Below, in pieces: positions 45,570 through 59,808 of a stretch of DNA of 64,000 bases. Within the stretch, counting starts at the first letter, position 1. Each line of letters opens with the position of its first letter. The notes beneath the pieces were generated by a model that was given only the letters and a program-made list of their open reading frames with translations, did not search any database and was not told the DNA's origin. The position numbers and the translations under genes were made by a program. The stretch comes from Methylococcales bacterium (lineage in GTDB: Bacteria > Pseudomonadota > Gammaproteobacteria > Methylococcales > DRLZ01). Location of the stretch: the NCBI GenBank assembly GCA_965224565.1, contig CBDCZN010000002.1:602570-666569 (forward strand), read 5' to 3'.

Positions 45570-46706
45570 TCAGTTCACATATTTATTCAATGCTTTTTTA
45601 ACTATTTCTACCACACGAGAGATTGGCCATGTTTCAGCCGTTTCTCTGGCATTAATGCTAGCATCCTTCAATAAATTTATATCTTCAAATGCCTGCATAG
45701 CAGCAACCATTTCAGACACATTGCCAACTTCAACTGTAAAACCATTTACTCTTGATATGACTCTTTCCTCTATGCTGCCGCAGGTAGTCGAGCCAATGAC
45801 AGGAATCCCCCAGCTCATTGCCTCAATAACTACAAGTGGAAAAGGATCATAGTATGCGGGATGAAATAACACATCGATTGCCATATAGAAATCGATCATG
45901 CCAGCTGGCTCCAACCAACCCAAAAACTCCACTTTTTCATGAATACCCATCTCTCTCGCTAGGTTCATTAATTTTGGTAACTGATCACCTGCTCCGGCAA
46001 CAAGCAAGCCTACTTTTTTTGTTGATTTCTTTTGACATTCGAAAAAGGTCTTTAATCCAATATCTTGAGCTTTTTTTTGGAAATCAATAGTTCCGCTAAT
46101 GCCAAACACTAGACCGTCTTTCTCGCACCCGATTTTTTTACGTAACGCTTCAGCTCTTTCACGGTTGACTTGGTTTTTTTTAAATAACTCAGGCTTGTTT
46201 AAGTCAACGACAAATTGGAAGTCATGAATTATTTCTTCTTTTGCTCCCATTTTGAGCAGCGCACGTTTTGCTGGTTGACCGCTGCCAAAAATTAAATCCA
46301 CATTGTTTAATAACCAGTATAAAAAACGTTTTCGAAAATATTGCTTCACAGCTGGTCTCTGTAATTGTTCTTGCGGGGTATCAACCCATAATGCTACTGG
46401 GTAATTTCTTATTATTCTTGCAAATAATAGCACTATACAGGGAATATGCGCCCAATCTCCAATTAAAAAAAGACTATTACTATCTTTCCACGCTTTATTA
46501 AATGAGGTCCAGTCGACTCCAAAAATTGTATTCATGAAATGGTTTGAATAACCCGTTGCCAAGACAGTATTCCAGGGGCGGCGATTACTTCTTTTCCATA
46601 GATGATATACTTGTAGGTTTATATCATAGTCATCATGTAGTGCTCTGAATAGATCATCATGATATGGAGTAGGTAGTTTATGAACTATGTATAAGTTATT
46701 TTTCAT
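45570..46706 (-). CDS. Glycosyltransferase family 4
   Basis: 378 aa with the C-terminal motif HPAYYDPFPLVVIEAMSWGIPVIGSTTCGSIEE (E-x7-E). Confidence 0.8.
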   Translation of the reverse strand: MKNNLYIVHKLPTPYHDDLFRALHDDYDINLQVYHLWKRSNRRPWNTVLATGYSNHFMNTIFGVDWTSFNKAWKDSNSLFLIGDWAHIPCIVLLFARIIRNYPVALWVDTPQEQLQRPAVKQYFRKRFLYWLLNNVDLIFGSGQPAKRALLKMGAKEEIIHDFQFVVDLNKPELFKKNQVNRERAEALRKKIGCEKDGLVFGISGTIDFQKKAQDIGLKTFFECQKKSTKKVGLLVAGAGDQLPKLMNLAREMGIHEKVEFLGWLEPAGMIDFYMAIDVLFHPAYYDPFPLVVIEAMSWGIPVIGSTTCGSIEERVISRVNGFTVEVGNVSEMVAAMQAFEDINLLKDASINARETAETWPISRVVEIVKKALNKYVN

Positions 46707-48147
46707 TACGATAAACTATTTTTGTTAACTTTATTATTCTATGACTAACAATGAGATATATCATTTTAACAAAAAGCTTAAAATCTCTCAATTTAGATAA
46801 AATATATGTTTTTGTAAACACCTTGCGTGCTTTTATCTTTATAAGCAGCAATAAAGGTTCTTTTTTTCCTTCCAATAATGAATTAATTAATTGTATGTCA
46901 TAACGATCCTTTGTTTCATTTCTATTTTTTTTCATTTTTTTAATAATATTTAATGAAGCGTATTTTAATCCGTCATAATAAAAGTGGTTTTCTGGATTAA
47001 ATATGATTTCATCTTTTGATGTAGGATGAAAGTGAAGTTCAGAATTATGATTGTCAATTTCATGGTTGGTACAATCAATTTCATAGTCACCGAAATTTAT
47101 GTAATCAAGATCTCTTGAATCCCGAATACCATATGCGGCTATTACAGAGCTACCATCTATACACAAAAATTCTTCATTAATTGCCAGACTCTTTAACCAG
47201 ACTTTATAATGTGTTAGTAGCTCTGAGTATTTTGGAAAGTTTTTGATTTTGGCATTGTTCATAAAGTGTATGCTGTTTAAATTAAAAACTTGTTGGGCTA
47301 GACGTATGGACTCCTCATGTGTATCTGTTGTATGGATGGTGTGATTTCCCATGCCATATAGTTTTCGTATATCTAGTTTTGCCTTTGTCAGGGATTCAAG
47401 ATGGCTCCGAATGACAAATACCTGTAGTTTTTCTTTACCCTGGAAACACCATTTTGCTTTTCGTTTAGCGCCTGCATAATCATCCTTATCATTACCAAGC
47501 CATTTTTCATTTTTATATAGTTGTCGCATTAATATTATTTGCCCAGTTTTAGTCAATGATATATCTTTTTTGTAGAATACTTTTCCCGCATTTTTTATAA
47601 TTGATTTGGCTTCATTTGTAAGCTCATTTATTGAGGGAAAAATAAACACCAAAAATGAATTTTTATTCAATTTACAATATTCAATTGCCACTGAATCTAA
47701 ATATTTTTCTTGAATACCTCTGTTTTTAAAGTATTTGTAGTCGTAGACTGGGCTTGATATTTTTTCCTTTTTAAATAATGGATTTTTTCCATAAAATAAA
47801 CATGCTGCTAAGCGGTGAGCGCCATTTAGCGGAGTGTTATCGATGCCTAATGGAATGGATCCAAAGGAAGGATCAAATCCTTTATCATTAATTGAATTTA
47901 AAATTATTTCATAAGCTTTGATGAAATCATCTTTGCCTAATTTTTTGGTGTTGTTTTCCTCTATAAATCCATTGAATACTCTAATATGTTCAATATACAG
48001 TTCTTTAAACCAAGTAGATTCTGTGTTTATTTCGCAACTTTTAGCGTACATGTATTTTATGATTACATCAAAGCGGTTTTCTAAAAATAATGTAGTTTCT
48101 GATATCATTGTGTTTTCCACATGTTGAGCATTAATGCAATCAACCAT
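46696..48147 (-). CDS. Hypothetical two-domain protein; the C-terminal half has a pol-beta-type nucleotidyltransferase-like motif
   Basis: 483 aa. The C-terminal DGSSVIAAYGIRDSRDLDYI fits the hG[GS]-x9-13-DhD NTase motif. The N-terminal half (PLNGAHRLAACLFYG) is unrecognised. It is the first gene of the overlapping-gene run 48147-38492. Confidence 0.4.
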   Translation of the reverse strand: MVDCINAQHVENTMISETTLFLENRFDVIIKYMYAKSCEINTESTWFKELYIEHIRVFNGFIEENNTKKLGKDDFIKAYEIILNSINDKGFDPSFGSIPLGIDNTPLNGAHRLAACLFYGKNPLFKKEKISSPVYDYKYFKNRGIQEKYLDSVAIEYCKLNKNSFLVFIFPSINELTNEAKSIIKNAGKVFYKKDISLTKTGQIILMRQLYKNEKWLGNDKDDYAGAKRKAKWCFQGKEKLQVFVIRSHLESLTKAKLDIRKLYGMGNHTIHTTDTHEESIRLAQQVFNLNSIHFMNNAKIKNFPKYSELLTHYKVWLKSLAINEEFLCIDGSSVIAAYGIRDSRDLDYINFGDYEIDCTNHEIDNHNSELHFHPTSKDEIIFNPENHFYYDGLKYASLNIIKKMKKNRNETKDRYDIQLINSLLEGKKEPLLLLIKIKARKVFTKTYILSKLRDFKLFVKMIYLIVSHRIIKLTKIVYRNEK

Positions 48148-48714
48148 TTATACAGAAAATGCGTAGGTTATGATTCATTTCACATTTTTTATAGTCTCTG
48201 AATTCATGGTTTATAGTACAATGGGATAAAAAACAGATAAAATATATGAATTCAATGTCTGTGTAAGAATATGCTTATAATTTGGTTAGAAATCATGCAA
48301 CTAAATATATCATTGCTATTTTATACAATTCTATTTTAAGGGTTCTGATGAGTTTCAGCAATATTTTGTGGTATAACATTTGTGATATTTCCTGTTGGAA
48401 AGTACCTTGCCAGTAATATTTGGTCTTAAGGGAGTGTAGAAAAGGGGTCTGAGCCCAATGCCGCTTCCAGTCGCTTAAAACATCAATTAATCAGTAAGTT
48501 ATGTGCATTTCACGCTTGGTTACAAATTGACACCATAATAATAAACAATAGCTTACCAAGATCGTTTATTAAAAATTGCACTTTAAATTTAATATACAAT
48601 TGTTCAAGTCATTGTTTTTAAGGTGACACTAACATTATAAAACAGGGAAACATTAGTCTTAAATAATTATAATTCAATTATTTAACACGTTACTCGGTAT
48701 TGGGGTCTGAGCCT

Positions 48715-49263
48715 TTAAAATTTTCTAAATCGCTTAAACACATTATCAAAATCTATTTTTGCCTTGCACGTAGTATCTTCGAATTCGTATGTTTCCTTAA
48801 AAAAGTCTCCCTGTTTGGAGTATTTATTGTTTTCTAGTCGATATAGTTTTGCCTTGCAATCATTTGGATACACGATTATGTAGTATGGAACTTTCTCTTT
48901 TTCGTATATTTCAAATTTGAAAATTTCATCTCGCTTGGCTGAAGATTTACTGACAACTTCTACAATAATCTCAGGTGTTTTTGTGATGTATTGATCATTT
49001 GGTTCATCGCATATTAAAACTACGTCAGGTTTCAAAATAGTATCATTTCTTACTTTCCAATCTTCCTCACCTAACACCAAGCATCTTTCACAATCACCTA
49101 TTGAATTCATCAATTAATTTAATATTTTACCTGCTATCGCTTGATGCTTGATCACTGGAGATGGGGTCATTGACACAGGAATTCATCCTATTAATTCCCA
49201 TTTTCCTTCCCAGTGAAGATAATTATCGTAGGTATAATATTCTATTGCTTTTTCAGTTGTCAT
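48715..49263 (-). pseudogene. Uma2 family endonuclease pseudogene (paralog of 54827-55378) with two in-frame stops
   Basis: Translation from the ATG at 49263: MTTEKAIEYYTYDNYLHWEGKWELIG-TGA-IPVSMTPSPVIKHQAIAGKILN-TAA-LMNSIG. The intact paralog has EG and E at those positions. The track ORF covers only the last 132 codons. Confidence 0.8.
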
Positions 49264-49522
49264 TACTTACTTTTCTTCCCTGCCTCCAGCTTGTTAATCT
49301 CGCTGAATAGCCGTTCAGGCTCTTGGTATCGATGAATCACCATCGGTAATACTCTTCCCTGCGACCGATCAATATCGTGAATTCACTAGCTGAGCTCATC
49401 CTGATAATAGTTATTCTCAATAACTTATGCTCGAGAATTAGGGGGCATTTTTTACATTCAATAGAATTTTGATAAAAATTAACGAATCCGACCATTTTAA
49501 AGCAAAGAGTATACAATTGCTA

Positions 49523-50927
49523 GTAACAGTCTTTTCCAATATGAAATGATGCTGAAAGCAAGAAAGGTGATTCCAATATAAAATGAGCCTGAAATAGCGA
49601 TCAATGTCGCTCATGATCACAGGATGAAAACGATCATGAGGCTGGAACAACTGACGAGCATTCAAGCGATCTATCAATTTCTTGATGGAACCCAAGCGGT
49701 TGCCTTCACGATGGCAACGAACAAGCAAGACCGTTATCGCTGGGTGCAGAAAACACTGGTGAAGCACCGCTACATACAACTTGGCAAGGTCGACAAGGGA
49801 ATCGTGATCCGCTACCTGATGAAAGTAACGGGTTATTCTTTGGCTCAGACTAAACGCCTGATACAGCAATACATCAAAACGGGTCGAGTGATCGCTAAGC
49901 CTGCCCGTGGCAACGGTTTCAGACGAACCTATTCAGAGCAGGATATTCGTTTGCTAGCCAGTATGGATGAACGACACGGCCAACCCAGCGGACCAGTCCT
50001 TAAAAAGCTTTGTGAGCGTGCGTACCAGCGTTTTAACCAAACTCAGTATCAACAATTGGCAAGGATTTCGGTCTCACACCTGTATAACTTGCGCGGCTCC
50101 AAAACCTATCAGCGCCAACGTTGCACTCTGACAAAAACACGCCCGAAAGCCGTTTCAATTGGACAACGCCGTAAGCCTTGCCCAAATGACCAACCAGGCT
50201 ATATTCGTATTGATTCTGTCCATCAGGGGGATCAGGATAAGCGCAAAGGGATTTACCACGTCAATGCAGTCGATGAGGTGACGCAATTCCAGATCATTGT
50301 GACACTTGAGCGGATTAGTGAGGACTTTATGCTACCCGCGTTACAACACATACTGGCTGCTTTCCCGTTTAAAATAAAGGGATTTCACACCGATAATGGT
50401 GGTGAATATATCAACTACAGCGTGGCTCAGTTGCTAGAAAAGCTGCGGATTGAATTCACCAAATCACGACCACGACGCAGCAATGATAATGGTCTGGTTG
50501 AAAGTAAAAATGGATCCGTGATTCGTAAACTCTATGGCTATACGCACATCCCTCAGCAGTACGCCACAGACTTCACAGAACTGAATCGGCAGCAAGTCTA
50601 CCGCTACGTCAATTTCCACCGCCCCAGTTTTTTCCCGACCATTGTCACGGATAACAAGGGCAAGCAGCGCAGAATGTATCGTTATAAAGAGATCAGGACA
50701 CCGTATGAAAAGTTCCGATCCTTGCCTCGCCCTAGCCAATACTTAAAGCCAGGGATCACACTTAAAATACTGGATGCATTTGCTGGTGAAATGACAGACA
50801 ATGAGGCAGCTGAACAAATGAATTCAGCACGCGATTATTTATTTAAACAACTCCATGAGCGACTCCAAATAAGGGCTTAAGACTCTCTTACCTTCAGGCT
50901 CATTTCTGGATTGGAAAAGACTGTAAC
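49523..50927 (+). mobile_element. Insertion sequence (~1.4 kb) with an rve-type DDE transposase (ISNCY/IS481-like)
   Basis: Terminal inverted repeats gtaacagtcttttccaat (49523-49540) versus attggaaaagactgtaac (50910-50927), 1 mismatch. Subterminal tccaat..aaatga.cctgaa motifs occur on both ends. No clear target-site duplication was seen. Confidence 0.7.
49624..50880 (+). CDS. DDE transposase with integrase-core (rve) domain
   Basis: 418 aa. N-terminal HTH region, then GYIRIDSVHQGDQD...YHVNAVDEVTQF...HTDNGGEYIN...ESKNGSVIRK (DDE triad context). Confidence 0.8.
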   Translation: MKTIMRLEQLTSIQAIYQFLDGTQAVAFTMATNKQDRYRWVQKTLVKHRYIQLGKVDKGIVIRYLMKVTGYSLAQTKRLIQQYIKTGRVIAKPARGNGFRRTYSEQDIRLLASMDERHGQPSGPVLKKLCERAYQRFNQTQYQQLARISVSHLYNLRGSKTYQRQRCTLTKTRPKAVSIGQRRKPCPNDQPGYIRIDSVHQGDQDKRKGIYHVNAVDEVTQFQIIVTLERISEDFMLPALQHILAAFPFKIKGFHTDNGGEYINYSVAQLLEKLRIEFTKSRPRRSNDNGLVESKNGSVIRKLYGYTHIPQQYATDFTELNRQQVYRYVNFHRPSFFPTIVTDNKGKQRRMYRYKEIRTPYEKFRSLPRPSQYLKPGITLKILDAFAGEMTDNEAAEQMNSARDYLFKQLHERLQIRA

Positions 50928-50985
50928 ACCAAGATATAGATTGACAGTAATATGCTGATTTTGCTCTTGGTTCTGGTTTACTGGT

Positions 50986-51113
50986 ATTATTTGATTTTCT
51001 TTTTTGCCATATATTTTGATTTTGGATTGACTTCTATAGTTTGTAGCTTTGGTACTAACACGACATCCATATCTTCCATAGGGATTGCTCCCAATAATAC
51101 TTCAGACTCACCA
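50986..51113 (-). pseudogene. 3' fragment (~40 codons) of a retropepsin-like protease gene
   Basis: Aligns by eye almost base for base with 56429-56566 (the 3' end of the intact gene 56428-56850). It abuts the IS right end. Confidence 0.75.
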
Positions 51114-51215
51114 CAGTATTGTCCTATTGGGCGTCCCCGTTTTCGGCTTGACATAATTTAGCATGAGGCATATAGCGAGTTATTATGACTCACTTTTTGA
51201 TGCTAGATTAACACA

Positions 51216-51479
51216 ATGAAACAGTTAACCATTCGCGGGTTTGATGAAGAACTGGAGAAATATTTATGTCAACTGGCAAAAGACGAAAATATTTCCCTGA
51301 ATAAGGCAACAGTTAAACTTCTACGCCAAGCAGCCGGTCTTGACAGAAAAAAGCGAGCACCCGACGTCATTGGTAATGCGCTGGATGAGTTTATTGGCGT
51401 ATGGTCGAGCCAGGAAGAGCGTCAATTTAACGATGCCATTCAGGTGTTTGAGGTTGTTGACGATACTTTATGGCAATGA
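51216..51479 (+). CDS. vapB: Ribbon-helix-helix antitoxin (VapB/FitA-like)
   Basis: 87 aa. MKQLTIRGFDEELEKYLCQLAKDENISLNKATVKLLRQA is an RHH pattern. It overlaps the downstream PIN gene by 10 nt. Confidence 0.75.
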   Translation: MKQLTIRGFDEELEKYLCQLAKDENISLNKATVKLLRQAAGLDRKKRAPDVIGNALDEFIGVWSSQEERQFNDAIQVFEVVDDTLWQ

Positions 51480-51871
51480 AACTTTTATTGGACACCAACG
51501 CCTATTCAGTCTTCATGTCGGGGCGCGACGAAGTGGTCGATCGTATCCGCCGCGCGGAGCGGGTTTTCCTTTCCACTATCGTGATCGGCGAGTTGCTATT
51601 CGGCTTTCGCAATGGCAATCAGTTTGATAAGAATTATCGAATACTGGAAGCCTTTCTCGACAATCACTTTGTGGAGCTAGTGCCGGCTACACTCACGACG
51701 GCGGATCGTTTTGGCCGAATTGCTGCCGCATTACGCGCGAAGGGACGACCATTGTCTTCTAACGATATATGGATTGCCGCTCATACTCTGGAAACGGGCG
51801 CGGATTTGCTCTCATACGATAACCACTTTCGGGAGATTGATGGCTTGCCCTGGATCCACTTAACGATTTAA
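51470..51871 (+). CDS. vapC: PIN-domain toxin VapC
   Basis: 133 aa. LLLDTNAYS (first acidic residue), GELLFG and SSNDIWIAAH are typical PIN/VapC motifs. Confidence 0.85.
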   Translation: MAMKLLLDTNAYSVFMSGRDEVVDRIRRAERVFLSTIVIGELLFGFRNGNQFDKNYRILEAFLDNHFVELVPATLTTADRFGRIAAALRAKGRPLSSNDIWIAAHTLETGADLLSYDNHFREIDGLPWIHLTI

Positions 51872-51976
51872 CGCGTGATACGGATGTGCGCAGGATGAAA
51901 AATCTATAGGATACCCATATTTATCATGGACACTAATCCCTGCTAAACTGCCACCTCATTTGAGATACACAGGTTT

Positions 51977-52528
51977 TCATTTTCTAAAACGTTTAAAAAT
52001 GGTTGAGAAGTCAAAACTGAGCGGACAACTTAGTTTGGTGAAATCAAAGGCTTCAGTATCGCATTCGGCGACTTTTAATAGTTTTTTGCCATTATGCTGA
52101 TAGATTCTGGCAACAAGATCATCTGGATAAACCTGGCAGTAATATTTAACCCCTTGATTCTGGTAGATCTCAAATTTCAGACCTTCATCCCGTTTGGCTG
52201 TCGATGGGCTTAGTACCTCAAAAATAATTTCGGGTGTTTTGGCGATGTAATTGGGGTTTTCATCATTGCAAACGACTGCAACATCAGGTTTGAGGATAGT
52301 GGAGGTATCCAGCTTCCAGTCTTCATCAATCAGAATTTCACAGTTTGGACAATTATTTGTTTTGTTGTTTATCTCACTAAAAATATAGCCTACAAGCATC
52401 TGATGTGTTTTGACTGGCGCAGGCGACATCGCATAGGGAATACCTTCAATAAGTTCCCAGTCGCCTTGCCAGTGTTGGTAATCTTCATAAGTATAGGCTG
52501 GCAGGTCTTCTGTTTTTAGTATTCCCAT
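51977..52528 (-). CDS. Uma2 (DUF820) family putative endonuclease, long type
   Basis: 183 aa. YTYEDYQHWQGDWELIEGIPYAMSP...KPDVAVVC...IIFEVLSPSTAKRDEGLKFEIYQNQGVKYY. Confidence 0.8.
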   Translation of the reverse strand: MGILKTEDLPAYTYEDYQHWQGDWELIEGIPYAMSPAPVKTHQMLVGYIFSEINNKTNNCPNCEILIDEDWKLDTSTILKPDVAVVCNDENPNYIAKTPEIIFEVLSPSTAKRDEGLKFEIYQNQGVKYYCQVYPDDLVARIYQHNGKKLLKVAECDTEAFDFTKLSCPLSFDFSTIFKRFRK

Positions 52529-52866
52529 GGTTTGTCCTTACGCTTATCTGCATGAGTAATAATAACATGAGCCCTTTGTTCTAAAAATATAGTTTCTCAA
52601 CTCTTCGAGTTGACTCTGATTAAAAAACCAGACCCCATGTTAAAAAATAGGGGCAGGCAACGTTTTCTGCGATAAGTAGGCGATGAAAAAGTTATTTAAA
52701 TAAAAGGAACTGAGCCAGGCTGTCGAATATTAATAAAAAGCCCGTATTTCGTTGAACTGCATTCTAACTGGCTGATTTTTTATTGTGATTTTTTCACTTG
52801 GCAAGAAAGGATGCTCAAAAACATCATGAAAAAGGTGTTGATAAACTAGAGTTAGAAATCTGAAAT

Positions 52867-54525
52867 GGATTAATCGTAACTTCTCATTATCCACAGGCAG
52901 CAGCTTGAAGAATATCCGCCATTGGAGGAATCTGTTTCGCATTCGACGTACGATCAAGCAGGTAGCTCCAGAACGAAATCCCATGCTTGCGACAGGTTTT
53001 CTTTAAACTGGCAAAGGTGTCCCTGCATTGCCGACCCGCTTCACTGCGGGTGCTCCCACTGATCTTGCGTTTCTTGACGTAATCCCGAATATCCCGTTCA
53101 CTCAGGTTATTGTGCAAGGGAATCTCCGGTCTTTCCAATACACGGAATAATTCATGCTGATTGTTGCCCATGCGTTTCAGGATCTGATTCAGCGTTTCAT
53201 AATCGGTGCGCGTCGATACCAGTTGATGGAACTGCGCTTTCAAGCGCGTTGCGTGCGCTGGGTCAGGCGCTGTTTTATAGATTTTCAAACCCGCATAAAT
53301 CGACCAAACTTCATCCCGCGCCCAGCTGACTGCTTGCTTTTGCAGATCATTCACAGGAATGAGCCGCGTCATCAGTCGCTCTGTATGAATCCAGCACAGG
53401 ACATGATCAAAGACATTGAATTGCCCCGCATCGTCACTCACAATGCCAAGATTGATTGGAATGCCTTGATCGAGCAAGCGCCCAACCAGCATCCCTTCGG
53501 TGAGAATCCGCTGATGACGTTGATTGGTGATCCCTTGCTCTTCCAGCCAGTGCTCTAAAGCAGCGGGTGTCTCAAATTTAATTGGTTGGGTTTCAAGCGA
53601 TTCCAATAGAAATTTCGGAAGCTTTTGGCGTTGCATGTATTCCAGAGCACCCGCATTGATGACGTAGGCCTGGCAACCACTTCTGCTCAGCAGCTCAAGA
53701 AAGTTAACACGACTTTTAGACTCAGTACTTTCAAACCAGGCAAACAGCTCATTGCCAATATGAGTACAGTAACCGGTCTTGCCCTGATGGCGAGCCCCGG
53801 TGTCATCTGCGTGAATATAGCTGGACAGCGGCAGTCCATAACGCAGCAGATCGCTTTTTTCCTGGTGAAACACGTCAAGGTCTTTGGTCAGCATTTGACT
53901 TAATTGACCGCTGGAGATATCAATACCAAGATCATGCAGTTGTTCCAGCAACAGGGGCTGAGTGACGTGCTGATGATGATATTGATACAAGATAAAACTG
54001 TGTAAGTTTGATCCCCAATGGCCACTACGAACCGATTCAGGTAACTGGGCAATGACATAACCCTCACTGGTTTCATATTCGGCCAGACGATAACGAATGG
54101 TGTGAGGACAAATGATCAGATCTTGAACAATAATGTCTCGATAGCCTTTAAAGCGTGCGTCCTCCGAAAGATTGGCGGGCTGTATGATGCGCTCTTCATG
54201 AATCGTCAAATGCTGGGTTTTACTGCGTTTGGGGCCTTTCTTTTTTCCGGTACGAGCACTATCGTCTTCTGGTTCTGTCTGTTGATCCATCCCGCTGGAC
54301 TTGAATTTAGGTTTTCGAGTCTGTTTGTTCAACCTGTGAATGTCATCTTCTAATTGCTCAATGCGATCTGATTGCCATTGGAGAAGTTCAAGCAACGCAT
54401 CGACTAGTGGCGTGCGATCAGCATCTGAAATGGGTGGCAATAGCGGCTTTACAGAATTCATTGAATGTAGTTTATTACATTTAATTCGTAATTGCCTGTA
54501 AATAATGAGAAGTTACGATTAATCC
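52867..54525 (-). mobile_element. Insertion sequence (1659 bp), IS66-family-like
   Basis: Perfect 24-bp terminal inverted repeats ggattaatcgtaacttctcattat (52867-52890) versus ataatgagaagttacgattaatcc (54502-54525). A single transposase ORF lies inside. No obvious target duplication. Confidence 0.8.
52887..54461 (-). CDS. IS66-like DDE transposase
   Basis: 524 aa. N-terminal coiled coil, IHADDTGARHQG, and a C-terminal HNNLSERDIRDYVKKRKISGSTRSEAGRQCRDTFASLKKTCRKHGISFWSYLLDR that resembles the IS66 TnpC C-terminus. The family assignment is by resemblance only. Confidence 0.65.
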   Translation of the reverse strand: MNSVKPLLPPISDADRTPLVDALLELLQWQSDRIEQLEDDIHRLNKQTRKPKFKSSGMDQQTEPEDDSARTGKKKGPKRSKTQHLTIHEERIIQPANLSEDARFKGYRDIIVQDLIICPHTIRYRLAEYETSEGYVIAQLPESVRSGHWGSNLHSFILYQYHHQHVTQPLLLEQLHDLGIDISSGQLSQMLTKDLDVFHQEKSDLLRYGLPLSSYIHADDTGARHQGKTGYCTHIGNELFAWFESTESKSRVNFLELLSRSGCQAYVINAGALEYMQRQKLPKFLLESLETQPIKFETPAALEHWLEEQGITNQRHQRILTEGMLVGRLLDQGIPINLGIVSDDAGQFNVFDHVLCWIHTERLMTRLIPVNDLQKQAVSWARDEVWSIYAGLKIYKTAPDPAHATRLKAQFHQLVSTRTDYETLNQILKRMGNNQHELFRVLERPEIPLHNNLSERDIRDYVKKRKISGSTRSEAGRQCRDTFASLKKTCRKHGISFWSYLLDRTSNAKQIPPMADILQAAACG

Positions 54526-54826
54526 TCATAACATATTGTTTAATAACGAATACATAATTTAAGACTTAACTGAGTTTCATAGGTAATCAGGATTTTTTAA
54601 CTGTCGGACATCACTAGCTCCGATATTTTAATGTTTCGGAAAAACAAAGTTGTTGAAGAAAATTACATTAATTATCAATTGTTTGCCAAGAGGGTATCAT
54701 GTTCTCTGATTTGATGCCTGCTGTCGATCAATACCGCAAATTCGATGGCTCATTGTTAAGTGGTTTTATCAGTACCTGTATGTATATCCATAATTTCTTA
54801 TAATCCACCTAAGGTCTGAAGCGACT

Positions 54827-55378
54827 TCATGCCTGTTTTCTAAATTGCTTAAACACATTATCAAAATCTATTTTTGCCTTGCACGTAGTATCTTCGAATT
54901 CATAAATTTCCTTAAAAAAGTCGCCCTGTTTGGAGTATTTACTATTTTCTAGTCGATACAGTTTTGCCTTGCAGTCATCTGGATACACGATTATGTAGTA
55001 TGCAACTTTCTCTCTTTCGTATATTTCAAATTTGAAAACTTCATCTCGCTTGGCTGAAGATTGACTTACAACTTCTACTATAATTTCCGGGGTTTTTGTG
55101 ATGTATTGATCATTTGGTTCATCACATATCAAAACCACATCAGGTTTCAAAATAGTATCATTTCTTACCTTCCAATCTTCCTCACCTAACACCAAGCATC
55201 TTTCACAATTTCCTATTGAATTCATCAATTCATTTAATATTTTACCTGCTATCGCTTGATGATTGATCACTGGAGATGGGGTCTTTGACATAGGGATACC
55301 CTCTAGCAATTCCCATTTTCCTTCCCAGAGAAGATAATCATCGTAGGTGTAATACTCTATTGCTTTTTCAGTTGTCAT
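54827..55378 (-). CDS. Uma2 (DUF820) family putative endonuclease, long type
   Basis: 183 aa. YTYDDYLLWEGKWELLEGIP...KPDVVLIC...IIVEVVSQSSAKRDEVFKFEIYEREKVAYY. Confidence 0.8.
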   Translation of the reverse strand: MTTEKAIEYYTYDDYLLWEGKWELLEGIPMSKTPSPVINHQAIAGKILNELMNSIGNCERCLVLGEEDWKVRNDTILKPDVVLICDEPNDQYITKTPEIIVEVVSQSSAKRDEVFKFEIYEREKVAYYIIVYPDDCKAKLYRLENSKYSKQGDFFKEIYEFEDTTCKAKIDFDNVFKQFRKQA

Positions 55379-55551
55379 TGATTATTTCCTTCTTCTACCT
55401 TCAGTTTTCTAATTTCGCTGTATAGGTAGCTCAGGCGATCGTTAGGGTTTGCTATATACAGGGCAAACACCGCTTAAATTCAATCCCAGCGCACCGCTAT
55501 TGCGTACTCTTGATTTTAATAAGCAGGAAACTTCAGTAAATAAACAGCTAA

Positions 55552-56022
55552 TTACTCATTCTCGGCAGCCAATTTCAACACCGCCTCAATCAACGACTGA
55601 GATAGATATATCCTGCTTGCAGCGATATCTTCAACTTGGGTTTTTATTTTTGATACAAGCCCTGCTTGTTTTGCACTGAATAAAATACCAAGAGAGCCAA
55701 TTGTATTAATCCCATTAATTTTGGCAGTTCTTCTGCCTCTTCTGTCATCAATTAAAAGCATGTCTGCTGATTTTTGTTTGTATAGCAACATGGCTTCAGT
55801 TTCTCCTGCATCAGTATTTCCATCCAGGTAGATAAAATCATGCATATTTACTTCGCGTACTTTTTCTTGTAGATAGTTCTCAAGTATTTTTGCTTCTGGC
55901 TTATCACTTTTTACTACTTCCAGAAAGACAGCTTCCGGCACAAACACTTCTTTAAAAAGTTGATCTTATAGTATAAGACCATCGCATACTGAAAGTGCTG
56001 AACTATCAGCAACTAAAATCAT
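55552..56022 (-). pseudogene. DUF3368 (PIN-like) toxin gene with an in-frame TAA at codon 19
   Basis: The ATG at 56022 overlaps the upstream stop (ATGA). Translation: MILVADSSALSVCDGLIL-TAA-DQLFKEVFVPEAVF... in the same frame as the track ORF 55552-55947. The C-terminus GETEAMLLY...LLIDDRRGRRTAKINGINTIGSLGIL is DUF3368-like. Confidence 0.7.
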
Positions 56023-56270
56023 TGATTGACCATACTTTCAAGTTCTTTCTGTAACTCCTCTTTTGTAACATTGATTACTGGTATTTGTTCTTCTTTACAG
56101 CATCTCATAAATTCATAGATATCCAAATTAGCTAGCTCTGCTGCTTTTGAGAGGGTAAGGTTGGCTGTTTTGTATAATCTTAGTGCATACGATAAACGCG
56201 TTTCTTGTTTGACTTTTTGCTCAGACTGCATTGTCATAAAGTCATTGGGTAATTCTATCGCTATTTGCAT
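56019..56270 (-). CDS. UPF0175 family antitoxin
   Basis: 83 aa. ALRLYKTANLTLSKAAELANLDIYEFMRCCKEEQIPV matches the UPF0175 pattern. It sits upstream of, and overlaps, the DUF3368 gene. Confidence 0.7.
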   Translation of the reverse strand: MQIAIELPNDFMTMQSEQKVKQETRLSYALRLYKTANLTLSKAAELANLDIYEFMRCCKEEQIPVINVTKEELQKELESMVNQ

Positions 56271-56285
56271 ATTTGCTTCTGTTAC

Positions 56286-56427
56286 TGAACCAAAGCCAAT
56301 CTGGTCGGATTTGATTGATTTTCCATAAGTGGAACGCCGTTTTCGGCAACACAGACATGCATCGCCAGATTAGAACGACACAGTTCAATCAAGTCAGTTT
56401 TATCTAATTCAATGCCCTTTACTTTAG
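56286..56427 (-). pseudogene. C-terminal remnant of an MNT-type nucleotidyltransferase antitoxin gene
   Basis: Encodes KVKGIELDKTDLIELCRSNLAMHVCVAENGVPL, alignable with MGIESNKIDLIELRRSNLAMRASVAENGISL of the intact gene 57340-57723. It starts directly after the stop codon of the protease gene. Confidence 0.65.
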
Positions 56428-56850
56428 CTATTTTTTGATTTTCTTTTTTGCCATATATTTTGATTTTGGATTGACATCTATAGTTTGTAGCTTTGGTACT
56501 AATACGACATCCATATCTTCCATAGGGATTGCCCCCAATAAAACTTCAGACTCACCAGGAAGTACAGCAGCATTACAGCTAGTCGTTCTGTTTTTAAAAT
56601 TAATTATTAAAGGCCCAACAACTTTCATAGGTTGCAATGAACCATCAGCAAGTTCTGCTTCCATCGTATCCATAACAGGCAAATCTAGTTGAGCTTTTAT
56701 GTGTTCATTGATACACATCATATATGCACCACTATCAACTAATGCTGTTACATTTTCTTTTTTAATGTCTTCCTTGTCGATGTAACCTTTCCTCGCTAAT
56801 TCAAAATCCCCAGCACTTACTAGTTCTAAATCCGCATAAATTAATTCCAT
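56428..56850 (-). CDS. Retropepsin-like (clan AA) aspartic protease, small stand-alone form
   Basis: 140 aa with the catalytic motif in TALVDSGAYMMCI and a second-half GAIPMEDMDVVL typical of small bacterial/archaeal retropepsin-like proteins. Confidence 0.7.
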   Translation of the reverse strand: MELIYADLELVSAGDFELARKGYIDKEDIKKENVTALVDSGAYMMCINEHIKAQLDLPVMDTMEAELADGSLQPMKVVGPLIINFKNRTTSCNAAVLPGESEVLLGAIPMEDMDVVLVPKLQTIDVNPKSKYMAKKKIKK

Positions 56851-56915
56851 ATTTCAATCCTCGTTGCTTAAAGTGGCTTTAGTCCGAGATATCCTCGCCA
56901 GCACAGGGGTGGAGG

Positions 56916-57350
56916 TCATTCATGCTTAGCTTTTCCATTCTCTTCAATTGTCTTAAGTAAAAAGTTCATGACAAATTGTTCGCTATCAGACATCACCCAT
57001 TCTATTACTTTATTCATGTCAATATTCATATAATCGTGAACGATACGATTACGAAACCCGATGACTTCATTCCATGCTGGAAGAGTGGTTGCTTCTATTT
57101 CACCACAACGTGCTAACGCAGAAAATGCGTCATAAGCCGAAATTGGTACAGCTTCGTTATGTGCTTTAAGGAGTTGTTTTGCTTTTCCTATTGCATTTTC
57201 GATTAGTACCTGCAAAGCATGCAGCACACCACTTTGTTCTAACAAGCTCAAGGTGCCACGCTGAGCCATAATTTCTCTTGCCTGTATTAATAATGCTGCT
57301 TGCTCTGTGGCAATGCGCGCAGTTTCTGCTTGATATAAATCAAGCCGCAT
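56916..57350 (-). CDS. hepT: HepT (DUF86) toxin of a HepT/MNT type VII toxin-antitoxin pair
   Basis: 144 aa with the Rx4HxY motif in FRNRIVHDYMNID. It overlaps the upstream MNT gene by 11 nt. Confidence 0.8.
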   Translation of the reverse strand: MRLDLYQAETARIATEQAALLIQAREIMAQRGTLSLLEQSGVLHALQVLIENAIGKAKQLLKAHNEAVPISAYDAFSALARCGEIEATTLPAWNEVIGFRNRIVHDYMNIDMNKVIEWVMSDSEQFVMNFLLKTIEENGKAKHE

Positions 57351-57723
57351 GACTTTGATCCCAGTAGAAATCTTCCAGTTCGCGCCAGGTGCGGGTTAAA
57401 AAATATGCCCAGGCCAAGGTCTCTTCACCTGTAAGTGAAATACCATTTTCGGCAACAGATGCACGCATTGCGAGATTAGAGCGACGTAGTTCAATCAGGT
57501 CAATTTTATTTGATTCGATGCCCATTGCTTCCGCTATATTTCTACGCAATGTCTCGGTTTTGCCAAGTAGCTCTAGCCAGTCTAACTGCATATTCCATTG
57601 CAAGGCGATATCCCAATCGCTGTCGGGTTGGGCTGTACCATTTGCTCTGCTGCCGATCAATACTGCGAATTCTATAGCCGACTCATCGTGTAGTTGTTTC
57701 CTCAGTAGCTTATGTATATCCAT
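57340..57723 (-). CDS. mntA: MNT minimal nucleotidyltransferase antitoxin
   Basis: 127 aa with the NTase motif VLIGSRANGTAQPDSDWDIAL (GSx...DxD). Confidence 0.8.
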   Translation of the reverse strand: MDIHKLLRKQLHDESAIEFAVLIGSRANGTAQPDSDWDIALQWNMQLDWLELLGKTETLRRNIAEAMGIESNKIDLIELRRSNLAMRASVAENGISLTGEETLAWAYFLTRTWRELEDFYWDQSHAA

Positions 57724-57763
57724 GGGGGTGGGATTGTAGTATGGAAAATGATAATTGATAATA

Positions 57764-58231
57764 TTAGACCAAGCCTTTTAAATCTATATTGAAAATTGAT
57801 TGAGTTTGTTGACCCTGGTGATTATGATATGTTACCTGACCATCCTCCGTTACTAGCCAAACTTCTTTTGCGCCCGCTTCTAAAAACAATACAACCTTGT
57901 CGATCATTTCTTCTCGCGTATTTGAGGGAGAAATAATTTCCACACATAATTCTGGTGCTGATAATGCATAGACATCTTTTATATGCTTTTGCACATATTC
58001 TTTGGAGCCCCACGCCACATCAGGCACACGAATTCCTTGCGTTGTTTGCACTGCAAGCTCGGTAAATACTTCGCCATCTAATTGATTACCCAATAATTTA
58101 GTTAATCTTCCTTGCAACAAACTATGAATAAATGATGCCGGGGACATTTCTATTATACCTTTTTCATTCAGTTCTATTTTATAAGGTAGATCATGTAATG
58201 ATTTGTCTGCTAAAACATCTTGCCATTGCAT
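57764..58231 (-). CDS. Uma2 (DUF820) family putative endonuclease, short type (1 of a tandem triplet)
   Basis: MQWQDVLADKSLHDLPYKIELNEKGIIEMSP...VPDVAWGS...ELCVEIISPSNTREEMIDKVVLFLEAGAKEVW. The start is at the ATG at 58231, preceded by ggag (Shine-Dalgarno sequence); the track ORF extends to 58270. Confidence 0.75.
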   Translation of the reverse strand: MQWQDVLADKSLHDLPYKIELNEKGIIEMSPASFIHSLLQGRLTKLLGNQLDGEVFTELAVQTTQGIRVPDVAWGSKEYVQKHIKDVYALSAPELCVEIISPSNTREEMIDKVVLFLEAGAKEVWLVTEDGQVTYHNHQGQQTQSIFNIDLKGLV

Positions 58232-58351
58232 GTTTTCTCCTATTTTGTTGCTAATGCTAAAGATACTCATAATAAACGGAGTTGTGTCTCAGGCGGGGTC
58301 AGGATTTAAGGACTTTACCTCTATAGCTCCATTATATGATAGGGCTAAATA

Positions 58352-58828
58352 CTATTGTTTTTTTATTGTCTGCGCAGTCGGTGCAATGCTACTTTCTTTA
58401 ATTTCGCCCGTATGTGTATAGGTGTTTATTCTTCCATTCTCATAGACTATCCATACTTCATTTGCACCTTTTGCAAGATAGAGATTAACTTTAGTAGCTA
58501 TTTCTTCCTTTGAATTGGATGGAGAAACAATTTCAACACAAATCTCTGGTGCTTTTGGGTAAGGTGTTTTGTAGGAAAATTTGTTTATAAAATCATTTGA
58601 AGCCCAGGCTACGTCCGCTACTTTTACGCCGTCAGCTGTTTGGATAGAACATTCTGCTATGACTTCTCCTTTTGGTAGCTTACTATTTAAATTAATGCTA
58701 ATTTGTACTTGTATGCGACCATGTTGATTAGAAGCTGGACTCATTAGAATGTTGCCGAATTTGTTCAGCTCAATTTTAAAAGGAAGGTCTTGTAGTAAAG
58801 GGTTGTTGATGACTTCAGACCATTGCAT
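58352..58828 (-). CDS. Uma2 (DUF820) family putative endonuclease, short type (2 of 3)
   Basis: 158 aa. MQWSEVINNPLLQDLPFKIELNKFGNILMSP...VADVAWAS...EICVEIVSPSNSKEEIATKVNLYLAKGANEVW. Confidence 0.75.
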   Translation of the reverse strand: MQWSEVINNPLLQDLPFKIELNKFGNILMSPASNQHGRIQVQISINLNSKLPKGEVIAECSIQTADGVKVADVAWASNDFINKFSYKTPYPKAPEICVEIVSPSNSKEEIATKVNLYLAKGANEVWIVYENGRINTYTHTGEIKESSIAPTAQTIKKQ

Positions 58829-59071
58829 TTTACACCTCTACAATCATAATATTTTCTTAAGAAAATAAGCGTTAAGTAATTACCGGGATTGGATCAAACC
58901 TGTGGATTTAATAATTTTCTATAACTTCTAACTATATAATAAGCTGAAATATATTTTATTTTTGCATTGGTGAAATATCATTAGCCTCAAACTTGCCCCG
59001 TTACCTTTTCTCTACCTTTTGTGTTAATTGCACGAAAAAATCACTGTAATGCAAAAAAAAAAAACAGAAAA

Positions 59072-59542
59072 TTAAATACTTGATGGAAAACTAACAGCCA
59101 CATTTGAGCTTTCCAGCTCACCTTCTTTTACAAAAAAACTCATATTACCAAGACTGTCACATACCCAAAACTCTAAAGCCCCTTGCAGAAAATATAATTC
59201 TTTTTTCTCATTTAGTTCACCTTTTGTGTTGGAAAAAGAAATTACTTCAATACAAATCTCGGGGGCTATTGAGCATTCAACCTCATTTTTTATTTTTTCC
59301 AATAAGTCATTTGATGCCCAGGCAACATCGGCTACTTTTGTTCCCTGTTGTGTGCTGATGGCGCATTCAGCTAAAGCCTCGCCTCCCGTCAAGCATTGAT
59401 ACAAGTTGCCGATGATTTTTCCTTGAAGAATAGAATGATTAACTTTGACCGGAGTCATCAATACTTTCCCTTGGTTATCGAGTTCTATCTTGAACGGAAT
59501 ATTTTTAAGGTATTGATTTTCACATGCTTCTTGCCACTGCAT
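59072..59542 (-). CDS. Uma2 (DUF820) family putative endonuclease, short type (3 of 3)
   Basis: 156 aa. MQWQEACENQYLKNIPFKIELDNQGKVLMTP...VADVAWAS...EICIEVISFSNTKGELNEKKELYFLQGALEFW. Confidence 0.75.
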   Translation of the reverse strand: MQWQEACENQYLKNIPFKIELDNQGKVLMTPVKVNHSILQGKIIGNLYQCLTGGEALAECAISTQQGTKVADVAWASNDLLEKIKNEVECSIAPEICIEVISFSNTKGELNEKKELYFLQGALEFWVCDSLGNMSFFVKEGELESSNVAVSFPSSI

Positions 59543-59808
59543 ATAAAATTTCCTTTTACTATTATGTTAATCTGGCAACAGGTTGAGGCTGACGGCTAAA
59601 ATTAAGGGCACTGATTTCTTAAAACAAAAAACTTACCAAATAAGAGAGAGTTAGCTTCCTATTCTACACATCGCTATTTATCAAATGCATTCGCTAACTC
59701 TAACATAAAATCTTTGTAAGGATTTTTATAGATATTACCCACTTGAAACAGGAGCTAAATCAGTTGCTTTTATGCCTTTAGGTGTCAGGATTGATTGCTC
59801 TGGCATCA

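Follow-up and report, generated by a model that had tools for sequence, protein, structure and literature searches.

The 11,661-bp interval between wzc and the synthesis block (positions 48148–59808 of the window, the whole 64,000-nucleotide stretch that was analysed) is best explained as a zone in which selfish and accessory genes have accreted at the junction of the export and synthesis genes, an explanation to which we assign a probability of about 0.65. Its older nucleus would consist of the type VII pair MntA-HepT with Uma2 (PD-(D/E)XK-type) nuclease genes on either side, all intact, under purifying selection and shared at the same junction by other lineages of Methylococcaceae. The UPF0175/DUF3368 and vapBC pairs, Uma2_B, two insertion sequences and a partial duplication of the segment from the retropepsin-like gene to Uma2_C would be later additions, several of them decaying. 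As an earlier note on this DNA had claimed, toxin-antitoxin, nuclease and insertion sequence genes occupy the interval and no ORF of ≥55 aa within it matches a glycan family in Pfam; all the elements listed by that note were found where it had placed them (Pfam, NCBIfam).

The interrupted polysaccharide locus

The genome is that of a methanotroph of the Methylococcales, with Methyloprofundus as its nearest named relatives. The polysaccharide locus extends from Bac_transf at 19554 to wza at 63816, on the minus strand except for 24481–25671, and its synthesis module is low in GC and variable. Judged by sequence, the glycan genes flanking the interval are parts of one Wzy-dependent locus. In the relative L010 (Wzc 71%) wzc is followed, after a gap of 37 bp, by genes for an NTP-transferase, an epimerase and an aminotransferase and by wzx, GT2, wzy and GT1 genes, and in L012 (Wzc 68%) by ugd and epimerase genes. 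This uninterrupted order identifies the interval as an interruption of one locus, and upholds the earlier treatment of the flanks as one locus rather than two unrelated ones. The order attH-wzb-wza-wzc is kept in every relative whose contig reaches far enough upstream, while the gene content 3′ of wzc is different in every relative examined, which fits a variable junction.

The interruption probably divided an ancestral transcription unit running from wza into the synthesis genes, and the synthesis block would therefore probably need a promoter of its own. A candidate site is the spacer 48148–48714, which contains no ORF of ≥55 aa and has stops throughout all three minus-strand frames; promoter and terminator scans, including the promoter scan of this spacer, gave scores no higher than shuffled sequence. 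The product of the first synthesis-block gene has no match in Pfam, NCBIfam or PADLOC, and the gene overlaps the next, GT4 gene (45570–46706) by 11 nt. Separate short-read contigs match both outer junctions of the island at 100% identity (L001, covering 54390–64000, and L006, covering 36831–48761), and the middle of the island (48761–54390) rests on a single assembly. With 100% identity to the window, L001–L003 and L006 do not constitute independent evidence.

Table 1. Features of the interval and its flanks, in window coordinates.
Feature	Position	Strand	Remarks
First synthesis-block gene, 483 aa	46696–48147	−	No family match; island flank
AT-rich non-coding spacer, 567 bp	48148–48714	.	Between island and first synthesis-block gene; GC ~0.30
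Uma2_A, pseudogene	48715–49263	−	Full-length; paralogue of Uma2_C; in-frame stops at codons 27 and 50
Degraded MntA N-terminal remnant	~49337–49516	−	Weak evidence; translation '...HKLLRITIIRMSSASEFTILIGRREE' resembles MntA N-terminus
rve/IS481-like element	49523–50927	+	18-nt inverted repeats (49523–49540/50910–50927), 94% complementary
Retropepsin-like 3′ fragment, 41 codons	50985–51113	−	96% nucleotide identity to 56429–56557
vapB	51216–51479	+	FitA-like RHH 19.7 bits, under its cut-off
vapC (PIN)	51470–51871	+	PIN 62.7 bits; VapC NCBIfam matches under cut-off
Uma2_B	51977–52528	−	Intact, long subtype, 183 aa; Pfam Uma2 76.4 bits; PADLOC PDC-S03
IS66-family element	52867–54525	−	33-nt inverted repeats, 94% complementary
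MntA N-terminal remnant	54718–54791	−	Between Uma2_C and IS66 element; 78% nucleotide identity to 57647–57723
Uma2_C	54827–55378	−	Intact, long subtype; Pfam Uma2 77.9 bits; conserved-core member
DUF3368 (PIN-like) toxin gene, disrupted	55552–56022 (full frame)	−	In-frame stop at codon 19 (55966–55968)
UPF0175 antitoxin-like gene	56019–56270	−	Pfam 62 bits; PADLOC PDC-S70, E=6e-40
MntA internal fragment, residues ~50–102	56312–56464	−	tblastn 49% amino-acid identity, E=2e-10
Retropepsin-like aspartic protease gene, 140 aa	56428–56850	−	DSGA motif; Pfam
hepT	56916–57350	−	NCBIfam 73.5 bits (cut-off 60); intact
mntA	57340–57723	−	NCBIfam 65.5 bits (cut-off 60); intact
Uma2_D	57764–58270	−	Short subtype; Pfam Uma2 70.2 bits
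Uma2_E	58352–58828	−	Short subtype; Pfam Uma2 59.8 bits
Uma2_F	59072–59542	−	Short subtype; Pfam Uma2 47.2 bits
wzc	59809–62058	−	Pfam Wzz/WZC_N/GNVR/AAA_31; island flank, conserved export module
wza	62434–63816	−	Pfam Poly_export/SLBB; island flank, conserved export module

Gene content and decay

The six Uma2 (PF05685) copies of the interval include one pseudogene, as had been reported. Uma2_A is not a mere fragment: it is full-length with stops, is 90.9% identical to 54836–55425 over 591 nt, and its 132-aa tail still matches Pfam Uma2 (E=3e-16). Residues E23, D80, E102, S105, S107 and K116 are retained in all seven intact Uma2 copies, and Uma2_B likewise retains the putative catalytic residues. 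Uma2_D, Uma2_E and Uma2_F form a tandem cassette (57764–59542) with mutual identities of 38–45%; paralogue cassettes of Uma2 genes have been described (PMC2701414).

The toxin-antitoxin pairs and the retropepsin-like gene named by the earlier note are present (Pfam, NCBIfam), with one qualification. Genes mntA and hepT form an intact type VII pair that is more widely conserved than anything else in the interval; its sequence contains the GSX10DXD and RX4HXY motifs as defined in PMC7641770. The type II pair vapB/vapC overlaps by 10 nt and is oriented opposite to the locus. The UPF0175/DUF3368 pair was correctly recognized, but the stop at codon 19 of the toxin gene had been missed: the full DUF3368 frame starts in overlap with the UPF0175 stop (ATGA), the annotated ORF (55552–55947) restarts at GTG, and the PADLOC match to PDC-S70 begins only at position 30 of the profile. 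The retropepsin-like gene scores barely over the cut-offs for gag-asp_proteas (28.8 bits) and Asp_protease_2 (27.4 bits), and under that for TIGR03698.

Both insertion sequences have intact inverted repeats, as previously described, and neither shows a target-site duplication. The IS66-family element, at which same-strain short-read contigs end, contains a single 524-aa transposase gene (52887–54461; DDE_Tnp_IS66 69 bits; NCBIfam IS66 132 bits, cut-off 180). For the rve-type transposase gene (49624–50880, 418 aa; Pfam rve 34.8 bits) IS481 is the best NCBIfam match, far under the cut-off. Each element is abutted by different truncated genes, which together with the missing duplications points to rearrangement.

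At least four gene fragments are present, where at least three had been claimed. The retropepsin-like fragment shows 97.6% amino-acid identity to residues 99–139 of the intact protein. The internal MntA fragment is 79% identical to 57432–57541 over 110 nt, and 56435–56323 matches the mntA gene of the relative L007 at 80.5% nucleotide identity over 113 nt (blastn). The remnant beside Uma2_C translates as 'MDIH...AIEFAVLIDSR' and contains stops. In the more weakly supported remnant at ~49337–49516, a 35-nt copy of repeat family D4 (49359–49393) matches the mntA copy 57647–57681 at 77%. The island repeats reach BLAST E-values of 0 and ~1e-55 and are thus above chance. Altogether, six pseudogenes or fragments stand against thirteen intact ORFs. 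No integrase, tRNA or att-like repeat was found in the interval, which speaks against the earlier view of one single island.

Conservation and selection at the junction

The junction could be compared with enough flank in one close relative (L007, Wzc 84%) and one distant relative (L093, Wzc 62%). In L007, wzc is followed by gmd, an epimerase gene, Uma2_D′, Uma2_E′, MntA, HepT, Uma2_C′ and a non-homologous glycosyltransferase block; the core (Uma2_D, Uma2_E, MntA-HepT and Uma2_C) shows 88–91% nucleotide identity to the window. In L093, MntA-HepT lies between the glycosyltransferase block and wzc, and L013 has a stretch colinear with the window at 88.5% that comprises Uma2_D, MntA, HepT and the retropepsin gene. 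MntA and HepT orthologues at the same junction are 87% and 94% identical in L007, and 81% and 89% in L093. The pair thus occupies this junction in three Methylococcaceae lineages with non-homologous glycosyltransferase blocks, and is retained where AttH and Wzb are only 57–58% identical.

The earlier note had set its island apart from conserved core content. This does not hold for Uma2_D, Uma2_E, MntA-HepT and Uma2_C, which are shared with L007, nor for MntA-HepT in L093. UPF0175/DUF3368, vapBC, Uma2_B, both insertion sequences and the partial duplication of the retropepsin-to-Uma2_C segment were not found at the junction in any relative with readable context. The retropepsin gene and the E-like Uma2 are not lineage-specific: the former has a 91% identical orthologue directly 3′ of HepT in L013 and is absent from the HepT-Uma2_C gap in L007, and a degraded copy of the latter follows wzc in L004.

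The five core genes are under purifying selection, with dN/dS values of 0.06–0.20: 0.06 for Uma2_D (94% identical to its L007 orthologue), 0.11 for Uma2_E (88%), 0.13 for Uma2_C (90.6% amino-acid identity) and 0.11–0.20 for mntA-hepT. For Uma2 this suggests that the host benefits, which selfishness alone does not explain. Synonymous divergence from L007 is 0.16–0.47 in the core and 0.75–0.97 in the export genes, a contrast drawn from short genes and few flanking genes; because a flanking aminotransferase gene has a dS of 0.25, the export genes rather than the core may be the outliers. Against L093, dS is 0.55–0.71 for MntA-HepT and 1.7 for wzb; for wza, wzc and attH it was not computable and was taken as saturated.

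Competing explanations and the setting of MntA-HepT

In the accretion reading, the junction would be non-essential as an insertion target and prone to recombination. Toxin-antitoxin pairs would stay there because their loss is costly, the stable toxin outliving its antitoxin, and neighbouring DNA may be retained with them; insertion sequences and recombination between paralogues would then reshuffle and shorten the contents. An addiction or stabilising cassette, as the earlier note had suggested, is plausible, and the settings in which MntA-HepT occurs lend it indirect support. That the interval is instead a neutral junkyard, a permissive gap that collects mobile DNA and lets it degrade, no part being under selection, seems quite unlikely. 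The six pseudogenes or fragments and the insertion sequences lacking target duplications agree with it, as do the similar genes scattered in the synthesis block of the window, which is also interrupted by Uma2 and Schlafen-type ATPase pairs, a Y1 transposase and an AAA_14 gene, and the richness of the clade in insertion sequences and toxin-antitoxin systems (reportedly up to 1,847 and 13–73, respectively, in Methyloprofundus-clade genomes; PMC8788690). It does not account for the low dN/dS of the core across lineages, the conserved residues of seven Uma2 copies or the persistence of MntA-HepT beside strongly diverged export genes.

The proposal of an anti-phage defence island, with Uma2 and the toxin-antitoxin pairs providing defence or abortive infection beside phage-receptor genes, is doubtful. 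PADLOC assigned PDC-S03 to all eight Uma2 genes of the window, PDC-S70 to UPF0175/DUF3368, a weak PDC-S09 to MntA and PDC-S01 to the AAA_14 gene (24481–25671). These PDC families, which we take to be candidates only, and the clustering of genes under purifying selection are compatible with defence. PADLOC detected no experimentally established defence system in the interval and no match for HepT, VapC or the retropepsin-like protein; furthermore, inactivating stops lie in one toxin gene (DUF3368) and one Uma2 gene, and a Pfam scan of the interval revealed no partner methylase or specificity gene for Uma2.

It is possible, although short of an even chance, that the MntA-HepT lineage, perhaps with Uma2, has a functional link with loci for polysaccharide export and that the rest of the island accreted around it. 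The dereplicated metagenome loci whose flanks could be used number 16, all of the same MntA-HepT subfamily (56–70% identity); a Wza-like (Poly_export/SLBB) gene lies within 4.5 kb of MntA-HepT in eight and a Wzz/GNVR gene in six, counts that cover this one subfamily of MntA-HepT among the toxin-antitoxin families and are set against an estimated background rate. A recurrent order comprises export protein (759–942 aa), MntA, HepT and chain-length determinant, all encoded on the same strand and separated by short gaps, and three more loci have gmd, glycosyltransferase or wzx genes around them. The identities of export protein and MntA covary (83/82, 67/77 and 43/63), and the shared junction in three Methylococcaceae lineages, despite their unrelated glycosyltransferase blocks, points in the same direction. 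None of the HEPN and toxin-antitoxin surveys that were consulted was found to mention this association. On the other hand, the 80 loci picked by two peptide patterns may be largely from related Betaproteobacteria sharing one inherited arrangement, and five loci (L026, L050, L055, L087 and L095) have no export genes nearby. Unlike the recurrent order, the window pair sits 3′ of wzc and not between wza and wzc, and toxin-antitoxin pairs inside biosynthetic operons are already known (PMC2701414).

As an accretion zone the interval is ordinary overall, and the position of MntA-HepT beside export genes in distant bacteria is unexpected and a lead worth following. If the functional link were true, the pair could serve as an addiction device specific to the locus, could regulate capsule mRNA, or could be an abortive-infection switch coupled to the capsule as phage receptor.

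Layout of the interval and of the locus around it

The island spans 11,661 bp (48148-59808) and is flanked by wzc (59809-62058) and by a gene for a 483-residue protein (46696-48147), the first of the synthesis block. All elements listed in the earlier note are found within this interval with Pfam and NCBIfam models, and its statement that no glycan gene lies there is borne out by zero glycan-family Pfam matches among the ORFs of at least 55 residues. The six Uma2 copies (PF05685), one of them a pseudogene, score 47-78 bits (cut-off 27), and both insertion sequences keep good inverted repeats, of 33 nt and 18 nt, 94% complementary each. Gene fragments are likewise present, but they number at least four rather than three. 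In total, 13 intact ORFs stand against 6 pseudogenes or fragments. The GC content is 0.40 in the island, 0.33 in the glycosyltransferase/wzx/wzy block and 0.42 at the housekeeping end of the window.

Features of the island and non-glycan features of the synthesis block (window positions)
Feature	Position	Strand	Remark
Uma2_F	59542-59072	-	nearest island gene to wzc
Uma2_E	58828-58352	-	
Uma2_D	58270-57764	-	
mntA	57723-57340	-	overlaps hepT
hepT	57350-56916	-	
Retropepsin-like gene	56850-56428	-	
mntA internal fragment	56464-56312	-	
UPF0175 gene	56270-56019	-	
DUF3368 gene	56022-55552	-	disrupted frame
Uma2_C	55378-54827	-	
mntA N-terminal remnant	54791-54718	-	
IS66-family element	54525-52867		
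Uma2_B	52528-51977	-	
vapBC	51216-51871	+	opposite to wzc
Retropepsin 3' fragment	51113-50985	-	
rve/IS481-like element	50927-49523		transposase on +
Degraded mntA remnant	about 49516-49337	-	
Uma2_A pseudogene	49263-48715	-	
AT-rich spacer, 567 bp			between Uma2_A and synthesis block
Y1 (IS200-like) transposase	31052-31735		synthesis block
Schlafen gene fragment	29775-29924		synthesis block
Aminotransferase 3'-end copy	26970-27209		84% identical to 3' end of 31840-32994
AAA_14 ATPase (PDC-S01)	24481-25671		strand opposite to locus

No tRNA or tmRNA genes are found in the window, nor is an ops/JUMPStart core (GGCGGTAG), and a search of Rfam over 47000-61000 gives zero matches at E<=0.1. Scans of 47900-60100 show no excess over shuffled sequence, either of promoters (38 versus 36.8) or of terminators (10 versus 9.0). 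Both outer junctions are recovered at 100% identity in short-read contigs (among L001-L003 and L006), which are from the same strain as the window and were left out of the comparative evidence. Short-read contigs stop at the IS66 element or within the Uma2_A/Uma2_C repeat, and the island accounts for the short-read assembly breaks at the capsule locus.

The glycan genes on the two sides form one interrupted locus, as the earlier note had supposed. It is a Wzy-dependent (group 1-like) locus, with Wza, Wzc, Polysacc_synt_3, Wzy_C, three GT4 genes and Bac_transf in the window, and wzb (LMWPc) just outside it, as seen in the same-strain contig L001. The locus extends from the initiating transferase (19554-21044) to wza (ending at 63816), all on the minus strand except 24481-25671, and comprises wzx, wzy, GT4 genes, aminotransferases and sugar-nucleotide genes. 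The export module attH-wzb-wza-wzc is kept in every relative whose contig reaches far enough upstream. In L010 (Wzc 71% identical) wzc is followed, after a 37-bp gap, by genes for an NTP-transferase, an epimerase and an aminotransferase, wzx, GT2, wzy and GT1, and in L012 (68%) by ugd and epimerase genes, whereas L008 (69%) and L005 (67%) have other genes after wzc. The junction is thus variable, and direct adjacency of synthesis genes to wzc does occur. A search of genome contigs with Wzc contributed only two loci, one with a doubtful taxonomic label; the nearest named relatives of the genome are Methyloprofundus. Given the 11.7-kb span, two opposing genes and two insertion sequences, against the 37-bp gap in L010, it is reasonable that the island would split the transcription of the locus.

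The synthesis block is itself interrupted by the same kinds of genes. These include a 2.2-kb duplication (27536-29723 and 34850-37041, 91% identity), of which each copy encodes a Schlafen/AlbA_2 plus HATPase_c_4 protein and a long-type Uma2 (dN/dS of 0.18-0.25 between copies), together with the Y1 transposase, the AAA_14 gene and the fragments in the table. The first gene of the block shares 11 nt with the GT4 gene that follows it. Its 483-residue product has no match in Pfam, NCBIfam or PADLOC; on visual inspection, 'NGAHRLAA' resembles a motif of ParB/sulfiredoxin-fold proteins and 'GSS...DSRDLD' one of nucleotidyltransferases. Elsewhere, three imperfect palindromes of about 145-170 nt, mutually unrelated in sequence (63820-63986, 17390-17556 and 3158-3299), have predicted hairpins of -61 to -95 kcal/mol. 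One lies immediately 5' of the wza start codon, and two carry TAGGAG...CTCCTA-like arms at both ends; the palindromes may have a regulatory function or be mobile hairpin elements. A diverged direct repeat occupies 95-1121 (95-809 versus 392-1121, 64% identity, offset about 300 nt).

Nuclease, toxin-antitoxin and transposable elements of the island

The Uma2 copies fall into two subtypes, of 156-168 and 183-201 residues. Uma2_D, Uma2_E and Uma2_F form a tandem trio with 38-45% mutual identity, and the long-type copies are dispersed. Uma2_A is a full-length copy with nonsense codons at 27 and 50, and shares 90.9% nucleotide identity with Uma2_C over 591 nt, including ~57 nt 5' of the start. Residues E23, D80, E102, S105, S107 and K116 are invariant in 7 intact Uma2 copies, which is compatible with a putative PD-(D/E)XK-type site. 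Paralogue cassettes of Uma2 (COG4636/DUF820, PF05685) have been described in cyanobacteria as likely solo toxins (Makarova et al. 2009, PMC2701414). Here too, small PD-(D/E)XK-type proteins occur in paralogue cassettes and a known antitoxin partner is rare; the present host, however, is a gammaproteobacterial methanotroph, its copies bracket MntA-HepT within a polysaccharide locus, and the two subtypes stand side by side.

In type VII toxin-antitoxin systems the toxin HepT is neutralised via adenylylation by MntA. In the window pair, mntA lies 5' of hepT on the same strand with an 11-nt overlap, and the pair passes the NCBIfam cut-offs of 60 bits (HepT NF047751, 73.5 bits; MntA NF047752, 65.5 bits). 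The MntA translation contains GSX10DXD as 'GSRANGTAQPDSDWD' and that of HepT RX4HXY as 'RNRIVHDY', following the motif definitions for the type VII pair of Shewanella oneidensis (SO_3166/SO_3165; PMC7641770). The two pairs agree in gene order and overlap, in both motifs and in passing the equivalog cut-offs, but they are remote in sequence (27.7 bits to PDB 5yep, 25.6 bits to 7ae2), and the window subfamily recurs beside polysaccharide export genes, a context not described in the literature searched. The S. oneidensis pair, which may sit in a polysaccharide cluster, was rejected as a guide to genomic context, being too remote (about 27 bits).

The other toxin-antitoxin genes are less clear-cut. 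The vapBC genes overlap by 10 nt; the PIN domain scores 62.7 bits, above its cut-off, the FitA-like RHH match of VapB 19.7 bits (cut-off 27), and the VapC equivalogs of NCBIfam stay below theirs. The UPF0175 and DUF3368 families both exceed their cut-offs and the genes are joined by an ATGA overlap, but this is not an intact pair (PADLOC PDC-S70): the full DUF3368 frame, starting at the overlap with the UPF0175 stop, has an in-frame stop at codon 19, and the listed ORF of 131 residues restarts at a GTG and is missing the N-terminal 'ILVAD' segment. The toxin gene is dead or truncated. In three unrelated metagenome loci, UPF0175/DUF3368 pairs with 29-55% identity to that of the window lie 0.5-8 kb 3' of MntA-HepT (L027:12822-13305, L037:12348-13068 and L043:2255-2976), so that co-occurrence of both modules extends beyond the window.

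IS66 elements typically carry accessory tnpA/tnpB genes and make an 8-bp target duplication. In the IS66-like element (DDE_Tnp_IS66 69 bits, above the Pfam cut-off; NCBIfam 132 against a cut-off of 180) neither a target duplication nor an accessory ORF is found. The IS481-like element has an rve match just above cut-off (34.8 bits) and scores 58 against 224 for NF033577. Around both elements no credible target duplication is found with +/-6 nt slack, and truncated genes adjoin each of them, which points to rearrangement after insertion.

The earlier note had proposed a defence annotation of the island. With PADLOC protein models, PDC-S03 matches every Uma2, PDC-S70 the UPF0175/DUF3368 genes and, weakly, PDC-S09 MntA, and elsewhere in the window PDC-S01 matches the AAA_14 gene; HepT, VapBC and the retropepsin-like protein have no match. 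These are candidate families and not an established defence system; the island may have a defence role.

A conserved nucleus and a lineage-specific shell

Neither an integrase among the island ORFs, nor a tRNA gene in the window, nor flanking direct repeats are found, and parts of the interval recur separately in relatives. The interval is therefore not an integrative genomic island, and its description as a single island does not stand. In L007, a relative with 84% Wzc identity, the order is wzc, gmd, epimerase, Uma2_D', Uma2_E', MntA, HepT and Uma2_C', with amino acid identities to the window of 94%, 88%, 87%, 94% and 91% for the last five. The tail of HepT is in a different reading frame there, and beyond Uma2_C' lies an opposite-strand glycosyltransferase block that is non-homologous to that of the window. 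Window 58095-56429 (Uma2_D, MntA, HepT and the retropepsin gene) has a colinear counterpart of 88.5% identity in L013, and in L004 (Wzc 73%) a degraded gene resembling Uma2_E lies 265 bp beyond wzc. In the more distant L093 (Wzc 62%, AttH 58%, Wzb 57%), MntA (81%) and HepT (89%) have a non-homologous glycosyltransferase block on one side and, on the other, wzc with a NusG-like gene. Comparison of these four relatives distinguishes a conserved nucleus (Uma2_D, Uma2_E, MntA-HepT and Uma2_C), kept in L007 and, in part, in L013 and L093, from a lineage-specific shell.

Three features of these contigs are recorded separately. At L093:8898-13884, on a Methylococcaceae MAG contig, Transposase_31 (Rpn-type PD-(D/E)XK) genes and fragments take the place of Uma2 around MntA-HepT, and the pair is thus associated there with another family of nucleases. 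Two distinct Methylococcaceae capsule junctions (L007 and L094) occur within assembly GCA_044240345.1, which therefore behaves like a metagenome assembly and not like one genome. L004 is labelled Roseivirgaceae, yet its Wzc is 73% identical to the Methylococcales protein of the window, which points to an error of binning or labelling.

Between the window and L007, dN/dS is 0.06 for Uma2_D, 0.11 for Uma2_E, 0.17 for MntA, 0.20 for HepT and 0.13 for Uma2_C. The corresponding dS values of 0.16-0.47 are lower than those of wzc, wza, wzb and attH (0.75-0.97), which indicates that the nucleus is younger than the adjoining export genes. Against L093, dS is 0.55-0.71 for MntA-HepT and 1.7 for wzb; wza, wzc and attH give no NG86 estimate, which is taken as saturation. 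Either the nucleus may have been exchanged between lineages in place, or the export genes may have been replaced. Among other genes compared with L007, GT2 has a dS of 0.51 and the neighbouring aminotransferase 0.25, and since the latter value is also low, lateral transfer of the core is not concluded.

Recurrence beside export genes and interpretation

A metagenome scan with the MntA alignment yields 80 loci, forming 56 clusters at 95% nucleotide identity. A Poly_export/SLBB gene lies within 4.5 kb in 8 of the 16 dereplicated loci with usable flanks, and a Wzz/GNVR gene in 6 of them; for a random 9-kb neighbourhood, roughly 1% would be expected to contain Poly_export, a rough estimate and not a computed control. 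In the usual arrangement, genes for an export protein of 759-942 residues, MntA, HepT and a chain-length determinant follow one another in this order, co-oriented and separated by short gaps (L014, L017, L019, L028, L063, L069 and L071; variant order in L058), and in L037, L039 and L042 the pair has gmd, glycosyltransferase or wzx genes around it. The GC content of these loci is 50-66%, with named homologues from Gallionella, Rhodoferax and Xylophilus. No export genes are nearby in L026, L050, L055, L087 and the Rhodoferax contig L095. The identity of the export protein rises and falls with that of MntA, which suggests that the two are co-inherited within this group.

The association of MntA-HepT with polysaccharide export is not mentioned in the HEPN and toxin-antitoxin surveys searched. 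MNT-HEPN pairs are known from biosynthetic operons, namely the lysine operon of Thermus thermophilus HB8 and a GNAT cluster of Deinococcus radiodurans (PMC2701414). There, as here, the pair lies within an operon of unrelated function and its presence varies among relatives, but those cases are one-off strain differences, whereas the present subfamily recurs with polysaccharide export in many lineages.

The interpretation in the earlier note is partly right: it is retained for the one interrupted locus, and abandoned for the single island. The interval is best read as a zone of accretion where export and synthesis genes meet, in which a shell in decay surrounds a nucleus of MntA-HepT and Uma2 that is under selection. 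The persistence of the interval would most likely be due to addiction through the intact toxin-antitoxin pairs, and the fragments would have been produced by insertion sequences and by recombination between paralogues. Going beyond the accretion zone, one MntA-HepT lineage could be a specialised, horizontally mobile resident of Wzy-type export loci, placed between outer-membrane export and chain-length-determinant genes in GC-rich Betaproteobacteria-like genomes and at the export/synthesis junction in Methylococcaceae. Its role would be that of an addiction module or regulator specific to the locus, and in this genome it would have seeded the larger pile-up of toxin-antitoxin and Uma2 genes. 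This proposal is tentative and, with all its parts taken jointly, rather unlikely; MntA-HepT may have a capsule-linked role.

Parallels to the accretion zone exist in other capsule loci. The toxin-antitoxin pair ntaAB is found at the cps locus of non-typable Streptococcus pneumoniae, where it was suggested to aid persistence of the cluster (PMC3541774). Both loci combine a toxin-antitoxin pair with insertion sequences, but in S. pneumoniae, a Gram-positive, a single Fic/Doc pair is present and the capsule genes are lost, whereas the present locus holds several toxin-antitoxin and nuclease modules and looks complete. We know of no multi-kilobase toxin-antitoxin/nuclease cluster between wzc and the synthesis genes of Klebsiella K-loci. 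In these loci, conserved export genes likewise adjoin a variable synthesis region, in which interruptions by insertion sequences, together with recombination, drive variation (for example PMC4453057, PMC12057282).

Insertion sequences and toxin-antitoxin systems are abundant in the clade (PMC8788690), and the island is a further case of such toxin-antitoxin, nuclease and insertion-sequence clutter, of use mainly for annotation: a capsule locus split in this way should be annotated as one locus. The part worth pursuing is the recurrence of MntA-HepT with polysaccharide export. Toxin-antitoxin pairs are usually viewed as freely mobile, and a subfamily that is associated with export genes in distant bacteria, and whose synonymous sites show it to be younger than the genes beside it, would be a concrete, testable case for asking whether toxin-antitoxin pairs lend stability to the surface-antigen loci that are exchanged most often, or move along with them.
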